A stretch of DNA of 57,126 bases from a virus, in the IMG/VR virus record IMGVR_UViG_3300033180_000002, positions 1 through 57,126 of that record; one strand, written 5' to 3'. Made by a program: the position numbers and the translations under genes. Positions 2,858 to 21,112 of this stretch are shown here, one piece after another. The notes below the pieces were generated by a model that did no database searches, had not been told where the DNA came from, and saw nothing but the letters and a program-made list of their open reading frames with translations. Within the stretch, counting starts at the first letter, position 1. Every line of letters starts with the position of its first letter.

Positions 2858-4822
2858 TCATGGCGCGAGGTCCCCTCGGGTGACGTGCAGGGTGGACTTC
2901 AGCAGCTCCGGGTCGTGCGCGACGCCCCGGGTCATCAGCTCTGTGCAGTAGCCGCCCAGCAGCTCCTCTAAGGCGTCGGCGTCCACACCCAGTGCGGGGG
3001 CCTGCTCGCGGACGTGCGACCACGCACCGGCCAGCAGGGCGGGCACGCGGGAGCGGTCTGGGATGACCTGGGTATGCAGCTCATGCTTCGGTACCGCATA
3101 CCGGGCACGGGCCGGACCGGCGACGAGGCGGCCACCGGCCAGCTCCAGGGCGCGGCGCACGGCGCTGTCGGCGGCGTAGAACAGGGCGGAGCCGTCCAGG
3201 GTGCCGATGGACGCGGCGAGCTGCCCCAGCTTCTGCTTCTTCGGTGCCCCGACGTTGCCCTGCTCGGCGTCGGCGACGGACGGGAACTGCGGCAGGCCGC
3301 GCTGCCCGGCGTCGGCCGGTTCCGTACCAGCCGAGTCGTATCCGGGGTCGCCGGGCATCAGGTCACCCTGGCCAGGGAGCTGCGGCGGCGTGGGCGGGGC
3401 GGGCATGGAGATGTGCGGCAGCCCGAGGATCTTCTGTACCTCGGGGTCGCCCGCGTAGGCGGGCTGGGCCAGTACGAGGGCCTTGACCAGGCTGTACCGC
3501 AGCTCCTTGTCGTCGGGGGCGTCGTCGTCGGTGAAGGCGGCGTTGTCGCGGGCTGCCTTCGCGCTGATCAGCTCCTTCTCGGCGAACTGGAGTGCCTGGT
3601 CGGAGCGGTTGGGGCGGACGGTGAGGGCGGCGATGTCGAACCAGAGGGTCTTCTTCTCCGGGTTCTGGACGCCTGCGGCTTTGAGGGCGGGCTGGAAGTA
3701 GCCGAGGTTGAGGGCGTCGGCGAGCTGGATGAGTAGCGGCTCGATGTGGATCTTGATCGAGGACTCTTCGATCTGCCACGACGACCAGTGATTGCTGCCG
3801 CCCATGCCGGTCAGCACCTCGGGCGGGATGTCCAGCGACATCGCCATGCGCTCGACGGCGTCCTTACGCATCTGGGAGATGTGCTCCGAGATGGTCGAAT
3901 CGAACGTCAAGTGTTTGATCTTGTCCAGGGCCTCAGTGGCTACCTGGAGGATGATCGGCACCACGGCGGCGGCGTTGTCTCGCTGCTGCATCGACGTGGC
4001 CATGGTCCGCTGCAACAGCTCCGCGAAGCCCTCCACGCCCGTGCGCTGCGGCACCCCCGGCGTCTCCTGTGGCGGGCGCGGAAAGTCGATGTTGTCGGGC
4101 AGCAGCAGGATCCCGGCACCGGCAAGGCGGGAATCCAGCTCGGCGAACACCCGCTTTGTGCACTGCTCCAGCTCGCGCAGCACCGGCAGGATGGCCCGCA
4201 CGGTGGAGTCGGCCGCGTCGTGGCGGCGGGGGTGCGGGTTCCACACCCGGATCAGCAGATCCTTCTGCGGGTCCAGCTTGTAATTGCCCCCGCCGTGGGT
4301 GATGGACCGGCGGACCATGATGTCGTCGCCGCGCCGGAACACCTCCGACGACGAGCAGACATACCACTTGTCCTGGTCCGGGGTGCCGTCCTGACCGGTG
4401 TTCCGATACCCCTCGGCGACGATGAAGACATCCCCGGCGGTCATCATGTTGATGCCCATCAGGCGCTGGGCCTGGGCTTTCGCGGCGGGAGTGCCGAACA
4501 TGGTCTCGGCGATCATCTTCGCCTGGGCGTCGGCGGTCTCGTCGCCCACAGTGCCGTCGTCGGCGATGTCGGCCGCGTACATGCGGCAGCGGGAGATGGC
4601 GTTACCGATCCAGTTGACGACGAAGCGCATCTCCCCGCAGATGTCGTAGTGGCGCCACGCCTCCCACTGCCAGCGGTGGTCGCCCAGCTTGAACATCTGC
4701 CAGCTCGCGGCATCGCCGAGGTTGATGGGTACGGCGGCGGCGGTGAGGGCTGAAGGCCGCGTGCCGGGGCCGTCCAGCCCCCCGGCGGGGACCAGCTTCG
4801 GCTTCTTGGTCAACAGCCCCAC
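2858..4822 (-). CDS. portal protein
   Basis: 654 aa. The N-terminal pattern WQWEAWRHYDICGEMRFVVNWIGNAISRCRMY is typical of actinophage portals. It lies between the terminase region and MuF. Confidence 0.85.
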   Translation of the reverse strand: MGLLTKKPKLVPAGGLDGPGTRPSALTAAAVPINLGDAASWQMFKLGDHRWQWEAWRHYDICGEMRFVVNWIGNAISRCRMYAADIADDGTVGDETADAQAKMIAETMFGTPAAKAQAQRLMGINMMTAGDVFIVAEGYRNTGQDGTPDQDKWYVCSSSEVFRRGDDIMVRRSITHGGGNYKLDPQKDLLIRVWNPHPRRHDAADSTVRAILPVLRELEQCTKRVFAELDSRLAGAGILLLPDNIDFPRPPQETPGVPQRTGVEGFAELLQRTMATSMQQRDNAAAVVPIILQVATEALDKIKHLTFDSTISEHISQMRKDAVERMAMSLDIPPEVLTGMGGSNHWSSWQIEESSIKIHIEPLLIQLADALNLGYFQPALKAAGVQNPEKKTLWFDIAALTVRPNRSDQALQFAEKELISAKAARDNAAFTDDDAPDDKELRYSLVKALVLAQPAYAGDPEVQKILGLPHISMPAPPTPPQLPGQGDLMPGDPGYDSAGTEPADAGQRGLPQFPSVADAEQGNVGAPKKQKLGQLAASIGTLDGSALFYAADSAVRRALELAGGRLVAGPARARYAVPKHELHTQVIPDRSRVPALLAGAWSHVREQAPALGVDADALEELLGGYCTELMTRGVAHDPELLKSTLHVTRGDLAP

Positions 4823-5173: not shown

Positions 5174-5734
5174 TCAGCCCAGCAACTCTTCGATTGCTGC
5201 CGCGTACGTCTCCTGGTCGAAGATGACCAGGCGGACGACCTCCACGTCCGTGCTCGCGGAGCGCAGCGCCGTCAGGGCCTGCTTGACCGCGTCACCCTTG
5301 GGCCAGCCGTAGACACCGGCCGAGATGAGCGGGAAGGCGACCGTGCGCGCACCTACGACGTCGGCGGCGGACAGCGACCTGACGTAGCAGCTACGTAGCA
5401 CAGCCGAGCGGTCCTCGCGCGGGTTGAACATGGGGCCGACGGTGTGGACCACCCATCGTGCGGGGAGGGCGCCTGCGGTGGTGATCACGGCGTACCCGGC
5501 GGGGAGGCCGTTGGGCAGGTCGCGGCGCAGCTCCTTGCATTCCCGCAGGATGGCCGGGCCGCCCGCGTGGTGGATCGCCCCGTCCACTCCGCCGCCGCCG
5601 AGCAGGCTGGACTTAGCGGCGTTGACGATGACGTCGACCTTCTCGGTGGTGATGTCGCCCTGCACCAGCTCTATCCGCAGGGCCGGGCGGCGCCAGTTGC
5701 GCAGGCGTCGGGCAATCTTGCCGAATCCGAACAT
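5174..5734 (-). CDS. macrodomain protein (MacroD/YmdB-like ADP-ribose binding or hydrolase)
   Basis: Contains LVQGDITTEKVDVIVNAAKSSLLGGGGVDGAIHHAGGPAILRECK, the classic macro-domain signature. The ATG at 5734 overlaps the upstream stop (TGATG), whereas the ORF track start is 5752. Confidence 0.8.
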   Translation of the reverse strand: MFGFGKIARRLRNWRRPALRIELVQGDITTEKVDVIVNAAKSSLLGGGGVDGAIHHAGGPAILRECKELRRDLPNGLPAGYAVITTAGALPARWVVHTVGPMFNPREDRSAVLRSCYVRSLSAADVVGARTVAFPLISAGVYGWPKGDAVKQALTALRSASTDVEVVRLVIFDQETYAAAIEELLG

Positions 5735-5982
5735 CAGAACTTCACGGTCCATTCGCTGTCGGGGATGCTGGTGTCGGCGGCCATGATCTGAGCCAGCATG
5801 AGGGCAATTTCGCCGACCGGACGGCCGCTCATTATGGGGCCGAATGTGCGGGCCATTCCGACGGCGTCTCTACGGCTGAAGCCGTGCCAGCCGATCCGGC
5901 CGGTCGGGTCCTCAACGATGACGGAGTAAGTGGGCCGCCCGTACCAGGTGCGGCCTCGGCGGATGACGGTGATGGTCGGCAT
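5734..5982 (-). CDS. hypothetical protein (82 aa)
   Basis: The real part of the 403-aa ORF 5734..6945 is MPTITVIRRGRTWYGRPTYSVIVEDPTGRIGWHGF.... GAGGGAGG lies 6 nt upstream of the ATG at 5982. Confidence 0.6.
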   Translation of the reverse strand: MPTITVIRRGRTWYGRPTYSVIVEDPTGRIGWHGFSRRDAVGMARTFGPIMSGRPVGEIALMLAQIMAADTSIPDSEWTVKF

Positions 5983-6248: not shown

Positions 6249-6980
6249 CTAGTTGGCCACGGCCACATTGTCGGCGGCAGTGACCGTGGCCTCGTCGATG
6301 GGATCGGCGTTGGCGAGCTCGTACCCGGTGCGGCCGTTGTCCCAACGCCAGCCCGCCACGCGCTGCGCCGACATCTCGTCGAACGCCTCCACGGTCGTGC
6401 GCATGTCGGCCGCCACGGGGCGCGTGATCACGAACCTCTTGAGCGGCGGGATGGGGGCGAGCCCGTACGAGGCGAGCACCCGGTTGGCGCCCTGCTCGCA
6501 GTACTTGGGTCCGGCGATGTGCCCGAGCAGGATGATCTCGCGGAGCATGTCCAGGGTGGCCTGCATGGTGGCCGGGGCGTCCAGGTCGATCACGTTCGGG
6601 TCGGGGTCTTCCGGTCCGGCCGTGAACTTCGGGTCGTTCAAGGTGGCCTGCACGGACACCATCGTCTGCACGCCAGTGCTCACGCGGTCCTCGAACAGGG
6701 TCAGGGCCTCGGCGCGGGTTGCGGCCTGGATCCCGACCGACACCGTGCCGGAGACGGTGGCCTCCACGACGTACGTGCTGGTGAAGCCGATCAGGTTGGT
6801 GATGCCCAGCACGGTGAGTTTCTTGTTCGCCCACTCGGCGGTGATCTCCCCCGCGTTGCGCCAGTCCCGGGCCGTTGCGGCGATGTACTCGCGCAGGGCC
6901 AGCAGCTTGGTCGCCTCGTCCCGGTCCGCGTTGTTGGCCTCCCACTCGGTCCAGACAAGGGCCGGGTCTGCGTACTGCAT
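6249..6980 (-). CDS. hypothetical protein (243 aa)
   Basis: The ATG at 6980 (MQYADPALVWTEW...) is preceded by GGAGGAG. The upstream part of ORF 6249..7106 runs into a tRNA-like gene. Confidence 0.6.
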   Translation of the reverse strand: MQYADPALVWTEWEANNADRDEATKLLALREYIAATARDWRNAGEITAEWANKKLTVLGITNLIGFTSTYVVEATVSGTVSVGIQAATRAEALTLFEDRVSTGVQTMVSVQATLNDPKFTAGPEDPDPNVIDLDAPATMQATLDMLREIILLGHIAGPKYCEQGANRVLASYGLAPIPPLKRFVITRPVAADMRTTVEAFDEMSAQRVAGWRWDNGRTGYELANADPIDEATVTAADNVAVAN

Positions 6981-7058
6981 GTGATCTCCTCCAACGTGGT
7001 ATCTGTCGGCCCTCAGCTTACACGGTGCGCCGGGGGGCCGTCCAGCCGGAACGGACGG

Positions 7059-7146
7059 TGGCGAGGGCAGGATTTGAACCTGCGTCCCAGACCCCGATAG
7101 CCGCACTATCCGGGGTCCGTGCTCTAGGCCGCTGAGCTATCTCGCC
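7059..7146 (-). ncRNA. tRNA-like RNA (88 nt) with a 12-bp anticodon stem; apical loop GUGCGGC (would read anticodon GCG)
   Basis: Hand fold: GGCGAGA TA GCTC AGCGGCCTA GAGC A CGGACCCCGGATA GTGCGGC TATCGGGGTCTG GGAC GCAGG TTCAAAT CCTGC CCTCGCC A. The acceptor, D and T arms are canonical. The anticodon stem is about 7 bp too long and has one bulged G. Confidence 0.65.
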
Positions 7147-7279
7147 TGGAACCCTGCCGTGGAGGTACGCATTCGGACACCACCACAACGCCCGTGAGCC
7201 ACGATGGACCGCGTTCTGCGCCCAGCGCACGACAGGGTCAACAACATCCCCGGGGCGTAAGCCAGGGCGCCGGGGATCG

Positions 7280-7323
7280 TGGACCGGCGGGGAGTCGAAC
7301 CCCGTGATACCCAACTCCGGCCC
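7280..7323 (-). ncRNA. acceptor/T-arm minihelix (tRNA 3'-fragment-like) with a G3:U70 wobble
   Basis: Hand fold: GGGCCGG AGTTGGGTATCA CGGGG TTCGACT CCCCG CCGGTCC A. No D or anticodon arm could be found. It shares the 3' end CCGGTCCA with the element at 9138..9203. Confidence 0.3.
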
Positions 7324-8064: not shown

Positions 8065-8154
8065 CGCCGCCCAGCGTCCGGTAAGAGCCTTCGTCTGGGC
8101 GACAGCGGAGGGCTGAGGTCGGGGCGGGCCCGCTTTGCTCTCCTCCGCATCCGT

Positions 8155-8348
8155 GGTGACGGGTGGGCTCGAACCACCGGGGTCCTTCCGGCCTGGTCCC
8201 TGTCGGCCCGGATGATCTTCCGAGTTTTCAGGGGGGCCTTGGGGCCGCTCCTCCCCCTTCGCACCGGCTGAATCAGGCCGGGGGTCGCCGTTAGCCGTGC
8301 GCACGGCGCGGTCCGGCCGGGGGTGCTCTTCCTCTGAGCTACGTCACC
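8155..8348 (-). ncRNA. 194-nt tRNA-like RNA: canonical acceptor, D and T arms with about 144 nt in place of the anticodon/variable region
   Basis: The 5' part is GGTGACG TA GCTC AGAGGAA GAGC A, and the 3' part is GGTGG TTCGAGC CCACC CGTCACC A, giving a 7/7-bp acceptor. The insert holds several hairpins, a duplicated ACCCCCGGCC and a GGGGGAGGAG tract. Confidence 0.6.
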
Positions 8349-8466
8349 TTGTTCAGTTGTCGTGCCCACCTCGCCCGCCGGGCCGTCGCCATGACGGGCG
8401 AGGTGGTGCCATTTCTCGCTTGGGTCAGACACCGTCGTGAGTGAACAGCTAGGCATGGCTGCCTCC

Positions 8467-8536
8467 GTGCCGTGCGGGGAGTTGAACCCCGTCTTCCCCG
8501 GGTTAGGGGGCGCTCCACCTCCAGAGCTTCACGGCG
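8467..8536 (-). tRNA. tRNA-like gene (70 nt), C1:A72 mismatch, 4-bp anticodon stem, loop CUAACCC
   Basis: Hand fold: CGCCGTG AA GCTC TGGAGGTG GAGC G CCCC CTAACCC GGGG AAGA CGGGG TTCAACT CCCCG CACGGCA C. It is a paralogue of 8790..8861, and both are preceded by GTAC. Confidence 0.6.
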
Positions 8537-8789
8537 GTACTGAGCCAGCCCGGGTCTCCAGGGCATGTCCCCGGCTCACCGATTCTCCCGTGTCCGGGCG
8601 GTGGGTCCTTGCTGGCCTTTCCTGTTACCAGGCGCAACCTGTGCGCCACTACCCCCTGCGGGGCCTCCCGCTCTGCGGGCGTCACGGCCGTGTCAGGCCG
8701 TCCTCGGCGGCTTCCTGCGCGTCACAGCTGCTCACCCGGGAGGGTGGACTGTGTACGACCTGCGTGCAAGCCACGAAGCACTTTCGGTC

Positions 8790-8861
8790 GTGCCACGGGA
8801 GGACTCGAACCTCCGACTCAGGGCTTTGGGCCCCAGCTCTGGCCATCTGAGCTACGCGGCG
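8790..8861 (-). tRNA. tRNA-like gene (72 nt) with an initiator-like body (C1:A72, three G:C pairs in the anticodon stem) but loop CCCAAAG
   Basis: Hand fold: CGCCGCG TA GCTC AGATGGCCA GAGC TGGGG CCCAAAG CCCTG AGTC GGAGG TTCGAGT CCTCC CGTGGCA C. Position 33 is C rather than U, and there is no N26. Confidence 0.65.
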
Positions 8862-8954
8862 GTACTAGGCTTTCTTCCGCTTCGCGTGTCGACCCACTAG
8901 GCGGCGCCTGGCCTTTCCTTTTACCACCCCAGGTTGGCTATCTCCCGGGGGCCG

Positions 8955-9026
8955 TGACGTTGGACGGATTCGCACCGCCGACCTCCTGCCGTGAGGCAGG
9001 TGCTCTATCTGCTGAGCTACAACGTC
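8955..9026 (-). tRNA. tRNA-like gene (72 nt), Val(CAC)-like, with a 6-nt anticodon loop
   Basis: Hand fold: GACGTTG TA GCTC AGCAGATA GAGC A CCTGC CUCACG GCAGG AGGTC GGCGG TGCGAAT CCGTC CAACGTC A. The loop is one nt short, and the T-loop is TGC instead of TTC. Confidence 0.7.
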
Positions 9027-9137
9027 GGCCGCTTACTCAAGGCGACCACTCGGGTTGACGCCAGGGTGAGTGTCGGCAGTTTCCCGCATTGGGCCAATGG
9101 CCTTCCAGGTAGTGCCGTCCTCCAGCGTTCCTTCGCG

Positions 9138-9203
9138 TGGACCGGTGGCATCGAAGCCAGCAGGCGTGCGGGCCGCACATCTTCAAAACACCCTGCCCGG
9201 TCC
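9138..9203 (-). ncRNA. 66-nt tRNA-like element (7-bp acceptor, T-like arm with a 6-nt loop, no clear D or anticodon arm)
   Basis: Sequence: GGACCGGGCAGGGTGTTTTGAAGATGTGCGGCCCGCACGCCTGCTGGCTTCGATGCCACCGGTCCA. The ends GGACCGG/CCGGTCC pair perfectly. Confidence 0.3.
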
Positions 9204-9344
9204 CGGCCGCCCGCATATGTTCGGGTCATCTGTCGGCCGTCGTGCTGGTCGTGGCCTCATCCCCCGAGGCGTGGGGGCATCGTCCAGCACTTGCACCTGT
9301 GGTCGTCTTGGGGTGTCGCACCCGGTGCCCCGGTGCGTCTTCCG

Positions 9345-9412
9345 TGGGAAGAGCAGGAGTCGAACCTGCGTCTCTGTGCCGAAGCGTGGCTCTACCGTTG
9401 AGCTATCTCCCC
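9345..9412 (-). ncRNA. tRNA-like RNA (68 nt) with a truncated anticodon arm
   Basis: Hand fold: GGGGAGA TA GCTC AACGGTA GAGC [CACGCTTCGGCACAGAGAC] GCAGG TTCGACT CCTGC TCTTCCC A. Only 19 nt sit where about 22 are expected, and no 5-bp/7-nt anticodon hairpin can form. Confidence 0.55.
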
Positions 9413-11235: not shown

Positions 11236-12714
11236 CTATCCGTACGCCGAGCTGGAGGGCATCCAGTCGTTGACGGACGGGGCGGCGATGCGGACCAGCC
11301 CCTTCTCTTTGCCCATCAGGAACAGTCCGGCCTGCACGAGGGCGTCGATGCGGTCGGGGCTCTTCGCATCCTCGGGGACCCACGTACAGCATTGGTCCTC
11401 CAGCTCGACGAAGGTGCCGACGTGGTGCCAGCGGTTCTGCTCGTAGCGGGAGGCGACCGGTTCGGCGCGCAGCTTCTTCCCGGCTAGGGAGGTGACTTCC
11501 TTGACCGGCGGCGGACCAGGGGGGAACAGGCAGCCTTGGCACCCCTCGTCCGGGTCGTCCTTGTCCGGGCCGGGGCAGCCCGGCTCGTGCTCCTTCTGCA
11601 TCTCCGCGTAGGCGTCGGTGACGACCTGCATGAGCCACTTCTTGCCCATGTTCGTTTCGATGATCAGCCAGGTGGCGTCGTAGCGCAGGAACATCTCCCA
11701 GGCGCGGCGGGCGGCGGCGTGCCCGACAATCTTCATCGTCCAGTCGGCTAGGACGTAGTCGTCGCCGTTGTAGCCGCGCCCGGCTGCGATCAGGCCGGTC
11801 TCGTCGCCCGCGCCAGTGGCGCCGGGGTCCATGGAGATGACGCGCATCTTCAGTTCGGGCAGGTCGGCAGCCTTGATGCGGTTGTTTTCGATCATGGTGC
11901 GGTTCCACAGTGCACCCTCGATCTCTTCGAGGAGGTGCCCGTACAACTCCTGCAACCCGGCGCGGGTGCCCTCGTAGATCTTCTTGAGCTGGTCGACGAC
12001 CTTCCGCGACAGGTTCATGATGTTGTCGAAGATCGAGCCGGTGGTGATGACGACCGTGCCGTCCGTCTCGTGCTGCCACTCGATCAGCAGCTTGATCGGC
12101 TTCGGGGTGGTGGTGACCACGGCGCGGGGGTGGTCGTCGATGAGCGGGGCGCGCAGCGACGGCAGGATGCCCTCGTACCAGGCGCTGTACGTGTAGCGCC
12201 ACTTGGCCAGCTCGTCGGCCCACAGCCCGGCCAGGTTGAAGCCTCGGCCGACGTCGGCGTTGTCGGCGCCCTCGAAGTAGATGACCTGACCGGACGTGAA
12301 TTCGATCATGAGCTTGGGCGACTTCCAGTACCGGAAGTCCTTGCCCTTCACGAGGCCCATGCGGTGCAGGATCGACAGGATGCCGGAGTTGCCCTCAAGG
12401 CAGGCGGTGCGGCAGTCGTTCAGCGTCTCGGCGATCACCAGCCACTCGGTGCGCTGGCCGAAGGCATCCACGGGATGGCGGAACACCCGGTCGAGGAGGT
12501 CTTCGGCGCCGGTGCGCGTTTTGCCCCAGCCGCGACCGGAGCGGATCAGCCAGACCAGCCAGTCCCCGGGCGGCTTGAACTGCTCGGGCCGCCCGACCCA
12601 CCACCAAGCGCCCTTCTGGATCTCCTCCAGCGTCTCGCGGTTCTGGGCCTGGAGCCATTGACGGCGCAGCGCGGGCGGCAGCAGGGCCAGCTTCTGGGCG
12701 GCGGACAGACTCAT
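11236..12714 (-). CDS. terminase large subunit
   Basis: 492 aa. It has the Walker A-like motif IRSGRGWGKTRTGAED, a C-terminal nuclease-like region, and the expected size and position. Confidence 0.85.
   Translation of the reverse strand: MSLSAAQKLALLPPALRRQWLQAQNRETLEEIQKGAWWWVGRPEQFKPPGDWLVWLIRSGRGWGKTRTGAEDLLDRVFRHPVDAFGQRTEWLVIAETLNDCRTACLEGNSGILSILHRMGLVKGKDFRYWKSPKLMIEFTSGQVIYFEGADNADVGRGFNLAGLWADELAKWRYTYSAWYEGILPSLRAPLIDDHPRAVVTTTPKPIKLLIEWQHETDGTVVITTGSIFDNIMNLSRKVVDQLKKIYEGTRAGLQELYGHLLEEIEGALWNRTMIENNRIKAADLPELKMRVISMDPGATGAGDETGLIAAGRGYNGDDYVLADWTMKIVGHAAARRAWEMFLRYDATWLIIETNMGKKWLMQVVTDAYAEMQKEHEPGCPGPDKDDPDEGCQGCLFPPGPPPVKEVTSLAGKKLRAEPVASRYEQNRWHHVGTFVELEDQCCTWVPEDAKSPDRIDALVQAGLFLMGKEKGLVRIAAPSVNDWMPSSSAYG
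11884..11893 (-). repeat. AT-rich motif copy (GATCGAAAAC)
   Basis: Context CATGATCGAAAACAA; within the large terminase in sense, read M-I-E-N. Confidence 0.8.
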
Positions 12715-21020: not shown

Positions 21021-21112
21021 GGGCCTGTAGCTCAACGGCAGAGCGCGTCATCCCACCGGGCATCACCCGGGTTCGGCAAGACGAGGCGCGGGTTCGACTC
21101 CCGCCAGGACCA
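21021..21112 (+). ncRNA. tRNA-like RNA (92 nt) with an expanded, irregular anticodon arm
   Basis: Hand fold: GGGCCTG TA GCTC AACGGCA GAGC G [42 nt: CGTC A TCCCA CCGGG CATCA CCCGG GTTCGGCAA GACG AGGC] GCGGG TTCGACT CCCGC CAGGACC A. It has a G3:A70 mismatch. Confidence 0.55.

Follow-up and report, generated by a model that had tools for sequence, protein, structure and literature searches.

The DNA analysed here is a viral sequence of 57,126 nucleotides (nt), IMG/VR record IMGVR_UViG_3300033180_000002, which is referred to below as the window and is essentially the complete genome of a high-GC tailed phage. Between its large terminase gene (11236-12714) and its portal gene (2858-4822), tRNA-like genes form a minus-strand cluster whose last member is an 88-nt element at 7059-7146. 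The element is located 78 nt upstream of a minus-strand gene for a 243-aa protein (6249..6992, called by third-codon-position GC (GC3), with a ribosome-binding site GGAGGAG at 6986-6992 and an ATG at 6978-6980). A preliminary description had presented it as a tRNA-like RNA whose anticodon stem is extended from 5 to 12 base pairs (bp).

Read from the minus strand, the element consists of GGCGAGA UA GCUC AGCGGCCUA GAGC A CGGACCCCGGAUAGUGCGGCUAUCGGGGUCUG GGAC GCAGG UUCAAAU CCUGC CCUCGCC A. These blocks correspond to the 5′ acceptor strand (7140-7146), the D arm (7121-7137), the anticodon arm (7088-7119), the variable loop (7084-7087), the T arm (7067-7083), the 3′ acceptor strand (7060-7066) and a discriminator A (7059), with CC next at 7058-7057. 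The Rfam tRNA model (RF00005) matched the element from end to end with 46.7 bits, above its gathering score of 29 (E = 7e-7 for the window), and 6 model positions of this alignment were occupied by 21 nt. A covariance model specific to the phage clade (R1, see below) scored it at 55 bits, while ARAGORN called it as 'tRNA-???', the anticodon being unreadable. The whole molecule had the cloverleaf as its minimum free energy (MFE) structure, with an energy of -45.3 kcal/mol (z = -3.7) that no dinucleotide shuffle out of 200 equalled. All the nucleotides of the tRNA elbow were present (U8, A14, G18 G19, A21, G15:C48, G53-C61 and U54 U55 C56 A58), together with a 7-bp acceptor stem, a D arm, a 5-bp T stem and a UUCRANY T loop; an A7.C66 mismatch in the acceptor stem was the sole flaw of the body. 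The score, the cloverleaf and the complete elbow bore out that a tRNA-like RNA is encoded here, and the observation is real, far beyond chance. The encoded 3′ end reads A73-C-C-G. Judging from its sequence, the element has neither a G3.U70 pair nor a long variable arm, either of which would allow anticodon-independent charging. Most aminoacyl-tRNA synthetases read the anticodon bases, and in the predicted fold these are displaced.

The anomaly of the molecule resides in its 32-nt anticodon arm (CGGACCCCGGAUAGUGCGGCUAUCGGGGUCUG, 7088..7119, minus strand), in which CGGACCCC(G)GAUA pairs with UAUCGGGGUCUG to form 12 bp with one bulged G under a GUGCGGC cap (7100-7106). Inside the canonical 5-bp stem there are 22 nt (7093-7114). 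Folded in isolation, the arm reached -20.1 kcal/mol compared with -9.7 +/- 2.4 for its shuffles (z = -4.3, 1 of 1000 shuffles being as good), which agreed with the fully paired 12-bp stem and single bulged G of the preliminary description. In contrast, its reading of GUGCGGC as a 7-nt loop with U33, a purine at position 37 and a GCG (Arg) anticodon proved fragile. The MFE structure closed this loop further by G-C and U.G pairs, giving 14 bp and a 3-nt loop, and the form with the 7-nt loop (-15.9 kcal/mol) was 4.2 kcal/mol worse. Functional tRNAs have an anticodon stem of 5 bp, or of 6 bp in Sec, Pyl and mt-Ser(UCN) (PMC7609411). Known tRNAs exceeding 5 bp stop at 6 bp, show an occasional small break and keep the 7-nt loop (PMC7609411), whereas the stem at 7059-7146 has 12-14 bp and its loop is not conserved. 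An arm of this length, compared with 5 bp and rarely 6 bp (PMC7609411), supported the earlier view that decoding is implausible: the element lacks the arm of a decoding tRNA, in which a stem of 5 bp (at most 6 bp) holds a 7-nt loop, with U33 and purine 37, at a set distance from the elbow. The best complementarity of the arm to the phage genome was 11 nt, a length that was matched or exceeded in 141 of 200 shuffles, and the longest complementary matches of all the arms in the window to the phage genome were at or under the shuffle expectation.

The positional homologues of the element were compared in an alignment of nine phages, the window and eight relatives, spanning from an upstream minihelix to the start of the downstream gene (alignment A5; L numbers hereafter denote contigs). 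A tRNA-like element of the 7059-7146 lineage was present just upstream of the 243-aa homologue in all eight relatives. The mean pairwise identity was 0.63 in the upstream spacer, 0.61 in the 5′ body, 0.19 in the anticodon-arm block, 0.78 in the variable loop, T arm and 3′ acceptor, and 0.45 in the downstream stretch. Lengths of the arm block ranged from 14 to 49 nt, and the hairpins that it contained were unrelated. The extended arm of the window, and with it the GUGCGGC loop, recurred only in the near-identical L013 and L052, whose arms are identical to each other and show one G-to-A change that produces an uncompensated C.A mismatch. The window and L013 are about 96% identical over the whole non-coding interval, so that this pair does not discriminate among segments. 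The L030 arm had the basal 7 bp in common (CGGACCC/GGGUCUG), with a different distal helix and loop. When metagenomes and viral contigs were searched with an exact 29-mer and with a gapped pattern of the basal stem and T arm, only L013, L052 and L030 were retrieved; a looser pattern in metagenomes mostly found cellular tRNA-Tyr, Leu and Met. The preliminary description had opposed random decay to compensated pairing as the possible outcomes among homologues. Neither was seen in its classical form, and what held was that the region remains a hairpin through a complete turnover of its sequence. The constraint on the arm is that of a stable hairpin, free in sequence and length.

We then considered the phage clade as a whole, represented by 54 uncultured viral contigs that were recruited by their portal protein (69-89% identity). 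ARAGORN reported tRNA-like genes in most of them, the majority with unreadable 2- or 4-nt 'anticodons' and with lengths of up to 97 nt; when introns were allowed, it reported extra bodies with 'introns' of 3 to 144 nt. A clade covariance model trained on 44 canonical-length members recognised 181 tRNA-like genes at E < 0.1 across 825 kb; every one was located upstream of the portal gene, and 180 shared its strand. Phages with the full 10 kb of upstream sequence carried 2-7 elements each (mean 4.3), and the array was kept, on a single strand, in every relative with enough upstream sequence. The nearest cultured phage by portal was Actinoplanes phage phiAsp2 (38% identity), which has no annotated tRNA genes. 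As a negative control the model was run on 59.6 kb of this phage, where nothing scored below E = 0.17, and this also sets a limit on the clade. DNA relatives of the phage, close or distant, were absent from 50,697 cultured phage records, and neither host nor prophage relatives were found in 185,579 species genomes.

The 144 best model matches, with 122 distinct arms, were used for the statistics on bodies and arms. The acceptor stem had 7 of 7 pairs in 85 matches and 6 of 7 in another 51. The T stem was intact in 137 of the 144, with UUCRANY loops, and the D stem in 127; positions 8-9 were UA in 105 and the D loop contained GG in 119. In the model alignment, 94.1% of the cells were paired, compared with 66.0% after column shuffles and 39-50% when the partners were slid by 1-3 columns. 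Fitting of the alignment to the model somewhat inflates the pairing percentages, but the slid controls are still exceeded by a large margin. Compensatory changes on both sides were found in 17 of the 18 body pairs. Between the D and T stems, where a normal tRNA has 22-23 nt, the length varied from 9 nt (no arm) to 87 nt, and surpassed 100 nt in a long-insert family that the clade model missed. Folding of 111 distinct arms gave a mean z of -2.1, with 85% of the values below -1 and only 3% above 0, and the commonest design was a tetraloop on a 6-bp stem. Just one of the 122 arms complied with the rules of a decoding arm (5-bp stem, 7-nt loop, U33 and purine 37). CCA was encoded in 6 of 130 elements and C74 was present in 104 of 130; any CCA would have to be added post-transcriptionally. 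The preliminary description had proposed that a helix was inserted precisely between the canonical stem and loop. This did not hold, since at this locus the whole arm differed between phages, with replacement by hairpins of 14 to 49 nt; across the clade it ranged from absent to more than 100 nt, and some elements had inserts in the D loop instead.

Several of these arms deserve mention. The rule-abiding one, at L040:1421-1492, is a plausible tRNA-Arg(UCU) with a 5-bp stem, the loop GUUCUAG and an encoded CCA. When stem length was relaxed, 11 of the 122 arms had a 7-nt terminal loop and 5 of these presented U33 and R37. Four of the five made up a family in which the loop GUGCAAA caps stems of 6, 7 and 8 bp (L011:4159-4234, L002:5683-5760, L031:1734-1812, also in L021 and L022, and L028:6057-6135). 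Its members share the anticodon GCA, A37, U1-A72 and G73, with a constant loop at a variable distance from the elbow. The L011:4159 member is a positional homologue of 7059-7146, and GUGCGGC has the same first four bases as GUGCAAA. A few members carried an extra hairpin of 15-43 nt in the D loop, instead of or besides the anticodon arm (L045:7872-7972, L021:586-691, L048:5749-5854, L023:6596-6700 and L028:5313-5425). In five phages, a long arm payload with covarying stems ended in an invariant apical AAG(G)UUACGAC loop (L002:5499-5597, L011:2161-2263, L015:5814-5913, L016:5515-5618 and L023:6406-6501). We take GUUACGAC to be complementary to the universally conserved 16S rRNA stretch GUCGUAAC, beside the decoding centre, a match of 8 nt that may well be due to chance. 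Most long payloads in the clade were singletons. L048:5438-5510 and L021:2-118 (also L022 and L031) had the same body and basal stem, with a GCAA tetraloop in the former and a 43-nt insert in its place in the latter. The L021 insert is bounded by the direct repeat GCAAGC, which resembles a target-site duplication or slippage and hints at how arms may grow. Outside the portal-defined set, metagenome contigs L177 (3518-3622), L180 (105 nt), L179, L190 and L215 contained tRNA bodies that share the T arm and acceptor of the phage elements, with long non-canonical centres, and may represent further members in other phages.

The remaining tRNA-like genes of the window showed a comparable diversity, and none of them had a canonical anticodon arm. 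The one at 8153..8348 (minus strand), recovered by ARAGORN with introns allowed, had its anticodon loop swapped for a structured insert of more than 100 nt. The first module of this insert formed a three-way junction, in which the motifs GUGCGCAC, CUGAUCAG and GCGAAG were conserved. When it was aligned across six phages (with L008:6349-6543, L010:5082-5285, L019:4508-4702, L021:830-1029 and L011:3223-3348), 11 of 36 pairs were compensated, with a covariation term of -2.95. No Rfam family matched the insert at E <= 5, and its sequence points to an unknown structured RNA domain on a tRNA chassis. Further upstream on the minus strand were a 70-nt gene at 8467..8536, with a 4-5 bp arm stem, a CUAACCC loop and a pyrimidine at 37; a 72-nt gene at 8790..8861, with a 5-bp arm and a 5-nt loop; a 72-nt gene at 8955..9026, with a UCAC tetraloop on a 6-bp stem; and a 68-nt gene at 9345..9412, with a truncated and barely paired anticodon region, which is located 44 nt past the stop codon of a 60-aa open reading frame (ORF). 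The arm of 8955-9026 looked as if derived from a Val-CAC arm minus one loop nucleotide. This gene was the most widely conserved member (about 25 loci by blastn), and its 6-bp UCAC-tetraloop arm was absent from the 185,579 species genomes. No ribozyme or intron family of Rfam was detected in the cluster at E <= 5.

The upstream minihelix mentioned above (7277..7323, minus strand, recognised by sequence and fold) is a 47-nt acceptor and T-arm helix lacking D and anticodon arms. Its acceptor stem comprises 7 bp, G3.U70 and A73 are present, and the helix is located 29 nt past the stop codon of a 114-aa ORF. Its sub-threshold matches were to the terminal parts of the transfer-messenger RNA (tmRNA) model (26.5 bits) and to mascRNA (28 bits). 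G3.U70 and A73 form the alanine identity set, which tmRNA also uses. By its sequence, the minihelix could be a substrate of alanyl-tRNA synthetase or SmpB, or just an RNase P/Z signal.

A second element, at 21021..21112 on the plus strand, had been described as built along the same lines as 7059-7146. It is tRNA-like and of the same broad class (Rfam tRNA 48 bits, clade model 53 bits), and the resemblance stopped there. Its 38-nt arm was irregular and branched, made of a 4-bp stem, internal loops and a 5-bp hairpin without a continuous helix; the whole molecule folded no better than shuffles (z = -0.36), and acceptor position 3-70 was a G.A mismatch. The element is found between convergent genes, at the end of the rightward one and opposite the other. 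No orthologue was present in the two relatives found via the neighbouring genes (one locus per gene), and a scan with its body pattern gave a single match, of 70 nt and unrelated. A 22-mer with its T-arm/acceptor pattern, GGTTCGACTCCCGCCAGGNCCA, matched at least 119 unrelated viral contigs (L056-L174), often near contig ends, only 1 of the 119 being within a full tRNA. These matches were rejected as orthologues, the pattern being too generic, and were taken as 3′ ends of tmRNA (ssrA) genes, at which integrated elements have their attachment sites. The resemblance of these presumed tmRNA ends to the 3′ half of the 21021 element would be fortuitous.

Around the 7059-7146 element, several non-coding features were conserved. 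A minus-strand hairpin, CGUCCGUUCCGGCUGGACG (7039..7057), begins 2 nt past the discriminator and was kept in L013, L016, L011 and L044 in alignment A5. From its sequence and position it could be a 3′ terminator of the element or a 5′ stabiliser of the downstream mRNA after 3′ cleavage. A promoter-like stretch was recognised by eye in the same alignment (7015..7044, minus strand), with TGGACG at 7039-7044, an 18-nt spacer and TAAGCT at 7015-7020. The TANNNT hexamer was TAAGCT, TATGCT or TATACT among relatives; a consensus scan called no sigma-70-type site at 7015-7044, and the promoter evidence is weak. Upstream of the element, a spacer or leader of about 100 nt (7147..7247, minus strand) contained the invariant blocks GCAGAACGC, GCUCACGGGCG and CGGCAGGG, and its identity over the nine phages was similar to that of the tRNA body. 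Covariation gave no support for RNA structure in this spacer (term -0.01), which may be a regulatory DNA site. A conserved terminator-like hairpin followed by AUGUUGUUG (7248..7267, minus strand, alignment A5) comes next after the minihelix and parts the upstream unit from the spacer.

The 243-aa protein had 58 homologues, all from the same phage clade and all annotated as hypothetical, and no Pfam match. Its confident AlphaFold2 model (predicted local distance difference test score 91) had no fold match in the PDB (best E = 1.2), and the modelled secondary structure looked internally duplicated, with helix-helix-strand-strand-helix-strand-strand occurring twice. A 40-residue match to designer pentatricopeptide-repeat proteins was probably compositional and was rejected. 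Between the tRNA-like cluster and the portal gene, the minus strand encodes a Macro-domain protein (5174-5752, Pfam E = 7e-36). Other genes of the window encode a MuF-like protein (740-2176), tail proteins, ERF, a NUDIX protein, a methyltransferase and a WDGH-domain protein. We found no connection between the Macro-domain, NUDIX or WDGH proteins and the tRNA-like RNAs. No tRNA endonuclease, RNA ligase, RtcB or Tpt1 was found among the 49 window proteins, and Pfam and PHROGs identified neither Ro60 (TROVE) nor a CCA-adding enzyme among them.

With moderate confidence, we interpret 7059-7146 as a functional gene for a tRNA-derived, non-decoding RNA that is a member of an array and acts via the tRNA top half. 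Selection acts on this top half, which comprises the acceptor stem, T arm and D arm or elbow and is what RNase P, the CCA-adding enzyme and RNase Z (or 3′ exonucleases) recognise. The anticodon arm would only need to be a self-contained stable hairpin and would therefore be free to vary in length and sequence, becoming shorter or longer or giving way to another hairpin. The rod of 12-14 bp would be one outcome of this freedom and not an adaptation for decoding. The element would be co-transcribed with its neighbours and cut out by enzymes with which the host matures its own tRNAs (RNase P and RNase Z), with effects on the neighbouring mRNAs. Excision would make it a cis-acting processing and stability module, similar to the t-elements of plant mitochondria, while the excised tRNA-shaped RNA would accumulate as a stable by-product. 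After the 3′ cleavage, the 7039-7057 hairpin would cap the downstream mRNA. We hold this cis mechanism, taken alone, more tentatively, a little short of an even judgement. The layout fits such a cis role, with an element 78 nt before the 243-aa gene, others after ORF stops and 21021-21112 at a gene end.

Engineered tRNA scaffolds, which are processed and stabilised by bacteria although their anticodon arm has been exchanged (PMC3753655), are one precedent for this interpretation. Another is provided by t-elements, non-canonical cloverleaves that are cut by RNase P and RNase Z and thereby create mRNA 5′ and 3′ ends; the excised t-element can persist and gain non-templated C or CC (PMC1920247). 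Like the phage elements, the t-elements of plant mitochondria keep the T arm (GGTTCRANYCC) and the acceptor, do not decode and are located beside coding regions (PMC1920247). The 7059-7146 element is likewise a non-decoding cloverleaf with a conserved T arm and acceptor that adjoins coding regions. However, t-elements occur singly, scattered over organelle genomes; most are degenerate throughout, and their ends were mapped experimentally. The phage elements instead form arrays of 2-7, have a near-perfect D arm and elbow with only the anticodon arm aberrant, and are predicted to be processed.

Some observations weigh against the interpretation that we favour. Mere mRNA punctuation leaves unexplained the five tandem elements at 8153-9412, which have no convincing ORF between them. 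If the promoter-like stretch before the 243-aa gene were real, processing would be unnecessary for that mRNA. Conservation of the D arm and of every elbow nucleotide is stricter than a minimal RNase P/Z substrate needs. The covarying payloads of sister families indicate, as far as alignments can tell, that the arm is clearly not a mere spacer there. In addition, transcription and cleavage of the element are assumptions, and the inflation of the body-pairing percentages has to be borne in mind.

These points make a trans-acting role a serious rival, although on balance we regard it as rather unlikely. The excised tRNA-shaped RNAs would act as decoys or sponges that titrate host proteins gripping the elbow and the acceptor end, the candidates being tRNA-targeting defence toxins that act on the acceptor end, or processing and modification enzymes. 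Being barred from translation, such RNAs would leave decoding undisturbed. The confinement of conservation to the top half and the tandem elements without intervening ORFs agree with this possibility, and the several distinct body lineages per phage would be expected if different host tRNAs were mimicked. The absence of aberrant arms from cellular genomes, as found for the UCAC-tetraloop arm, and the GUGCAAA loop on 6-8 bp stems, which suits recognition by a protein and not by the ribosome, point in the same direction. Phage tRNAs are established counter-measures to tRNA-cleaving defences (PMC11555353; PMC10264068), and their anticodon loops, like those of the phage elements, deviate from those of the host (PMC10264068; PMC11555353). 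Yet the documented cases are decoding-competent tRNAs with point changes in the 7-nt loop and not mimics, whereas in the phage elements the geometry of both loop and stem is abolished, and the protein searches of the window recognised neither a known anti-defence protein nor a toxin partner.

Somewhat less probable still is that the element works as a natural tRNA scaffold, in which the body serves as a processing and stability chassis and the arm as a payload (a protein-binding hairpin, an aptamer or an antisense RNA) specific to the phage or its host. Bacteria process and stabilise engineered tRNA bodies in which the anticodon arm has been swapped for any hairpin (PMC3753655), and the architecture of this scaffold (Ponchon and Dardel) is identical to that of the phage elements: the acceptor, T and D arms are kept and a hairpin-closed insert replaces the anticodon stem-loop (PMC3753655). 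Among the sister elements, a payload role is clearly indicated by sequence for some families, namely 8153-8348 (11 of 36 pairs) and the AAG(G)UUACGAC loop of five phages, both with covarying stems. Moreover, the arm evolves far faster than the adjacent non-coding DNA, as expected of a specificity module. The engineered scaffold is, however, man-made, and the 7088-7119 arm gave no evidence of a payload function: it had no conserved loop or motif beyond the near-identical L013 and L052, only the basal 7 bp were retained in L030, the positional homologues bore unrelated hairpins of 14-49 nt, and complementarity to the phage genome was at chance level. Most long payloads being singletons also argues against this idea. 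Literature searches gave no natural phage counterpart of the engineered scaffold.

Other small RNAs resemble the phage elements in part. The genes of RNAC and RNAD in phage T4 are found within its tRNA region or next to it, and the two RNAs mature together with the tRNAs. Both are small, stable and phage-encoded, neither is a tRNA, and their function is still unknown (PMC9697503). These two RNAs of one phage have no sequence kinship to the elements in question, and no description presents them as a family in which tRNA bodies are conserved while anticodon arms are hypervariable. The YrlA Y RNAs and the tRNA-like domain of tmRNA are tRNA mimics that keep the T arm, the D arm and an acceptor-like stem while the anticodon side is replaced; they are substrates of tRNA-modifying or tRNA-processing enzymes, and some are phage-encoded, including a mycobacteriophage YrlA (PMC4201824). 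YrlA ends in a long helix that replaces the anticodon stem, binds Ro60 and is encoded beside it, whereas the phage elements end at the acceptor stem and the window encodes no TROVE/Ro60 protein. An identity of 7059-7146 as YrlA or tmRNA was rejected: there was no Ro60 gene and no Rfam match to either at threshold, and the ends would be misplaced.

It is very unlikely that the element is a decaying tRNA pseudogene that drifts after loss of function. The disrupted anticodon region, the inability of most members to decode and the A7.C66 mismatch could be read in that way. Nevertheless, the loss of constraint over the whole molecule and the uncompensated stem changes expected from drift were not observed: 17 of 18 body pairs were compensated with 94% of the cells paired, the invariants of the T loop and D loop were kept, arms folded significantly better than shuffles, the one-strand array persisted in every relative with enough upstream sequence, and identity of the body (0.61-0.78) equalled or exceeded that of the flanking non-coding DNA.

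Hardly more credible, and if anything less so, is a tRNA intron. Under this explanation, which the preliminary description had itself named as the finding that would overturn it, 13-15 nt of the arm would be spliced out to yield a working tRNA, for example an Arg tRNA or the 'Asp-AUC' of ARAGORN. The insert does occupy the anticodon arm, the usual site of tRNA introns, and ARAGORN proposed a 13-nt intron when introns were allowed. The sequence gave it no support. The helix is continuous but for one bulged G and lacks a bulge-helix-bulge motif, 15 nt are far below the size of a group I intron (about 200 nt or more, with a P1-P9 core), no Rfam intron family matched at E <= 5, and no splicing endonuclease, ligase, RtcB or Tpt1 was recognised among the 49 window proteins. 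Splicing of such introns is not known from bacteria. Excision could not repair the sister elements, whose arms are too short or whose inserts are in the D loop, and the product of ARAGORN would have an implausible A34 anticodon.

A working decoder with an extra-long arm and a GCG triplet has next to no probability: if a 7-nt loop is assumed there is a U at the second and a G at the sixth loop position, but the loop is predicted to close to 3 nt and is not kept in homologues, and an extension of 7-9 bp would move the anticodon away from the elbow by about 20 A and most of a helical turn. The geometry of tRNA on the ribosome is fixed, and such an extension is incompatible with it. The stems of known tRNAs have 5-6 bp (PMC7609411).

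Altogether, these results firmly support a conserved family of non-decoding tRNA-like RNAs, whose function we infer. In full-text literature searches we came across no report of phages with arrays of tRNA bodies whose anticodon arms are extended or hypervariable. The tRNA genes of phages are usually explained by codon usage or by the replacement of host tRNAs that have been destroyed by defence nucleases. In this clade, each phage keeps 2-7 tRNA-shaped genes under purifying selection on the body, almost none of which are able to decode. The maintenance of bodies that almost never decode implies a translation-independent use of the tRNA fold by phages. The fold could be a handle for processing or stability, a decoy or a carrier of other RNA modules. 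Since ARAGORN assigned ordinary amino-acid identities or '???' to many of these elements, automated tRNA counts would overstate the decoding capacity of such phages. More speculatively, and with rather low probability in our view, the tRNA body could be a natural modular chassis on which a hairpin, a junction or an aptamer is grafted for the anticodon or D loop, with decoy, protein-binding or antisense roles. The grafted module would be cut out and stabilised by the tRNA enzymes of the host, and the hypervariable arms could be a fast-evolving repertoire of small RNAs in the conflict between phage and host. If so, the rod of 12-14 bp at 7088-7119 would count among these payloads and the element would be a natural counterpart of the engineered tRNA scaffold. 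A scaffold of this kind would provide a natural precedent for a widely used trick of RNA engineering, and its variable arms would be a new place to seek phage counter-defence RNAs.

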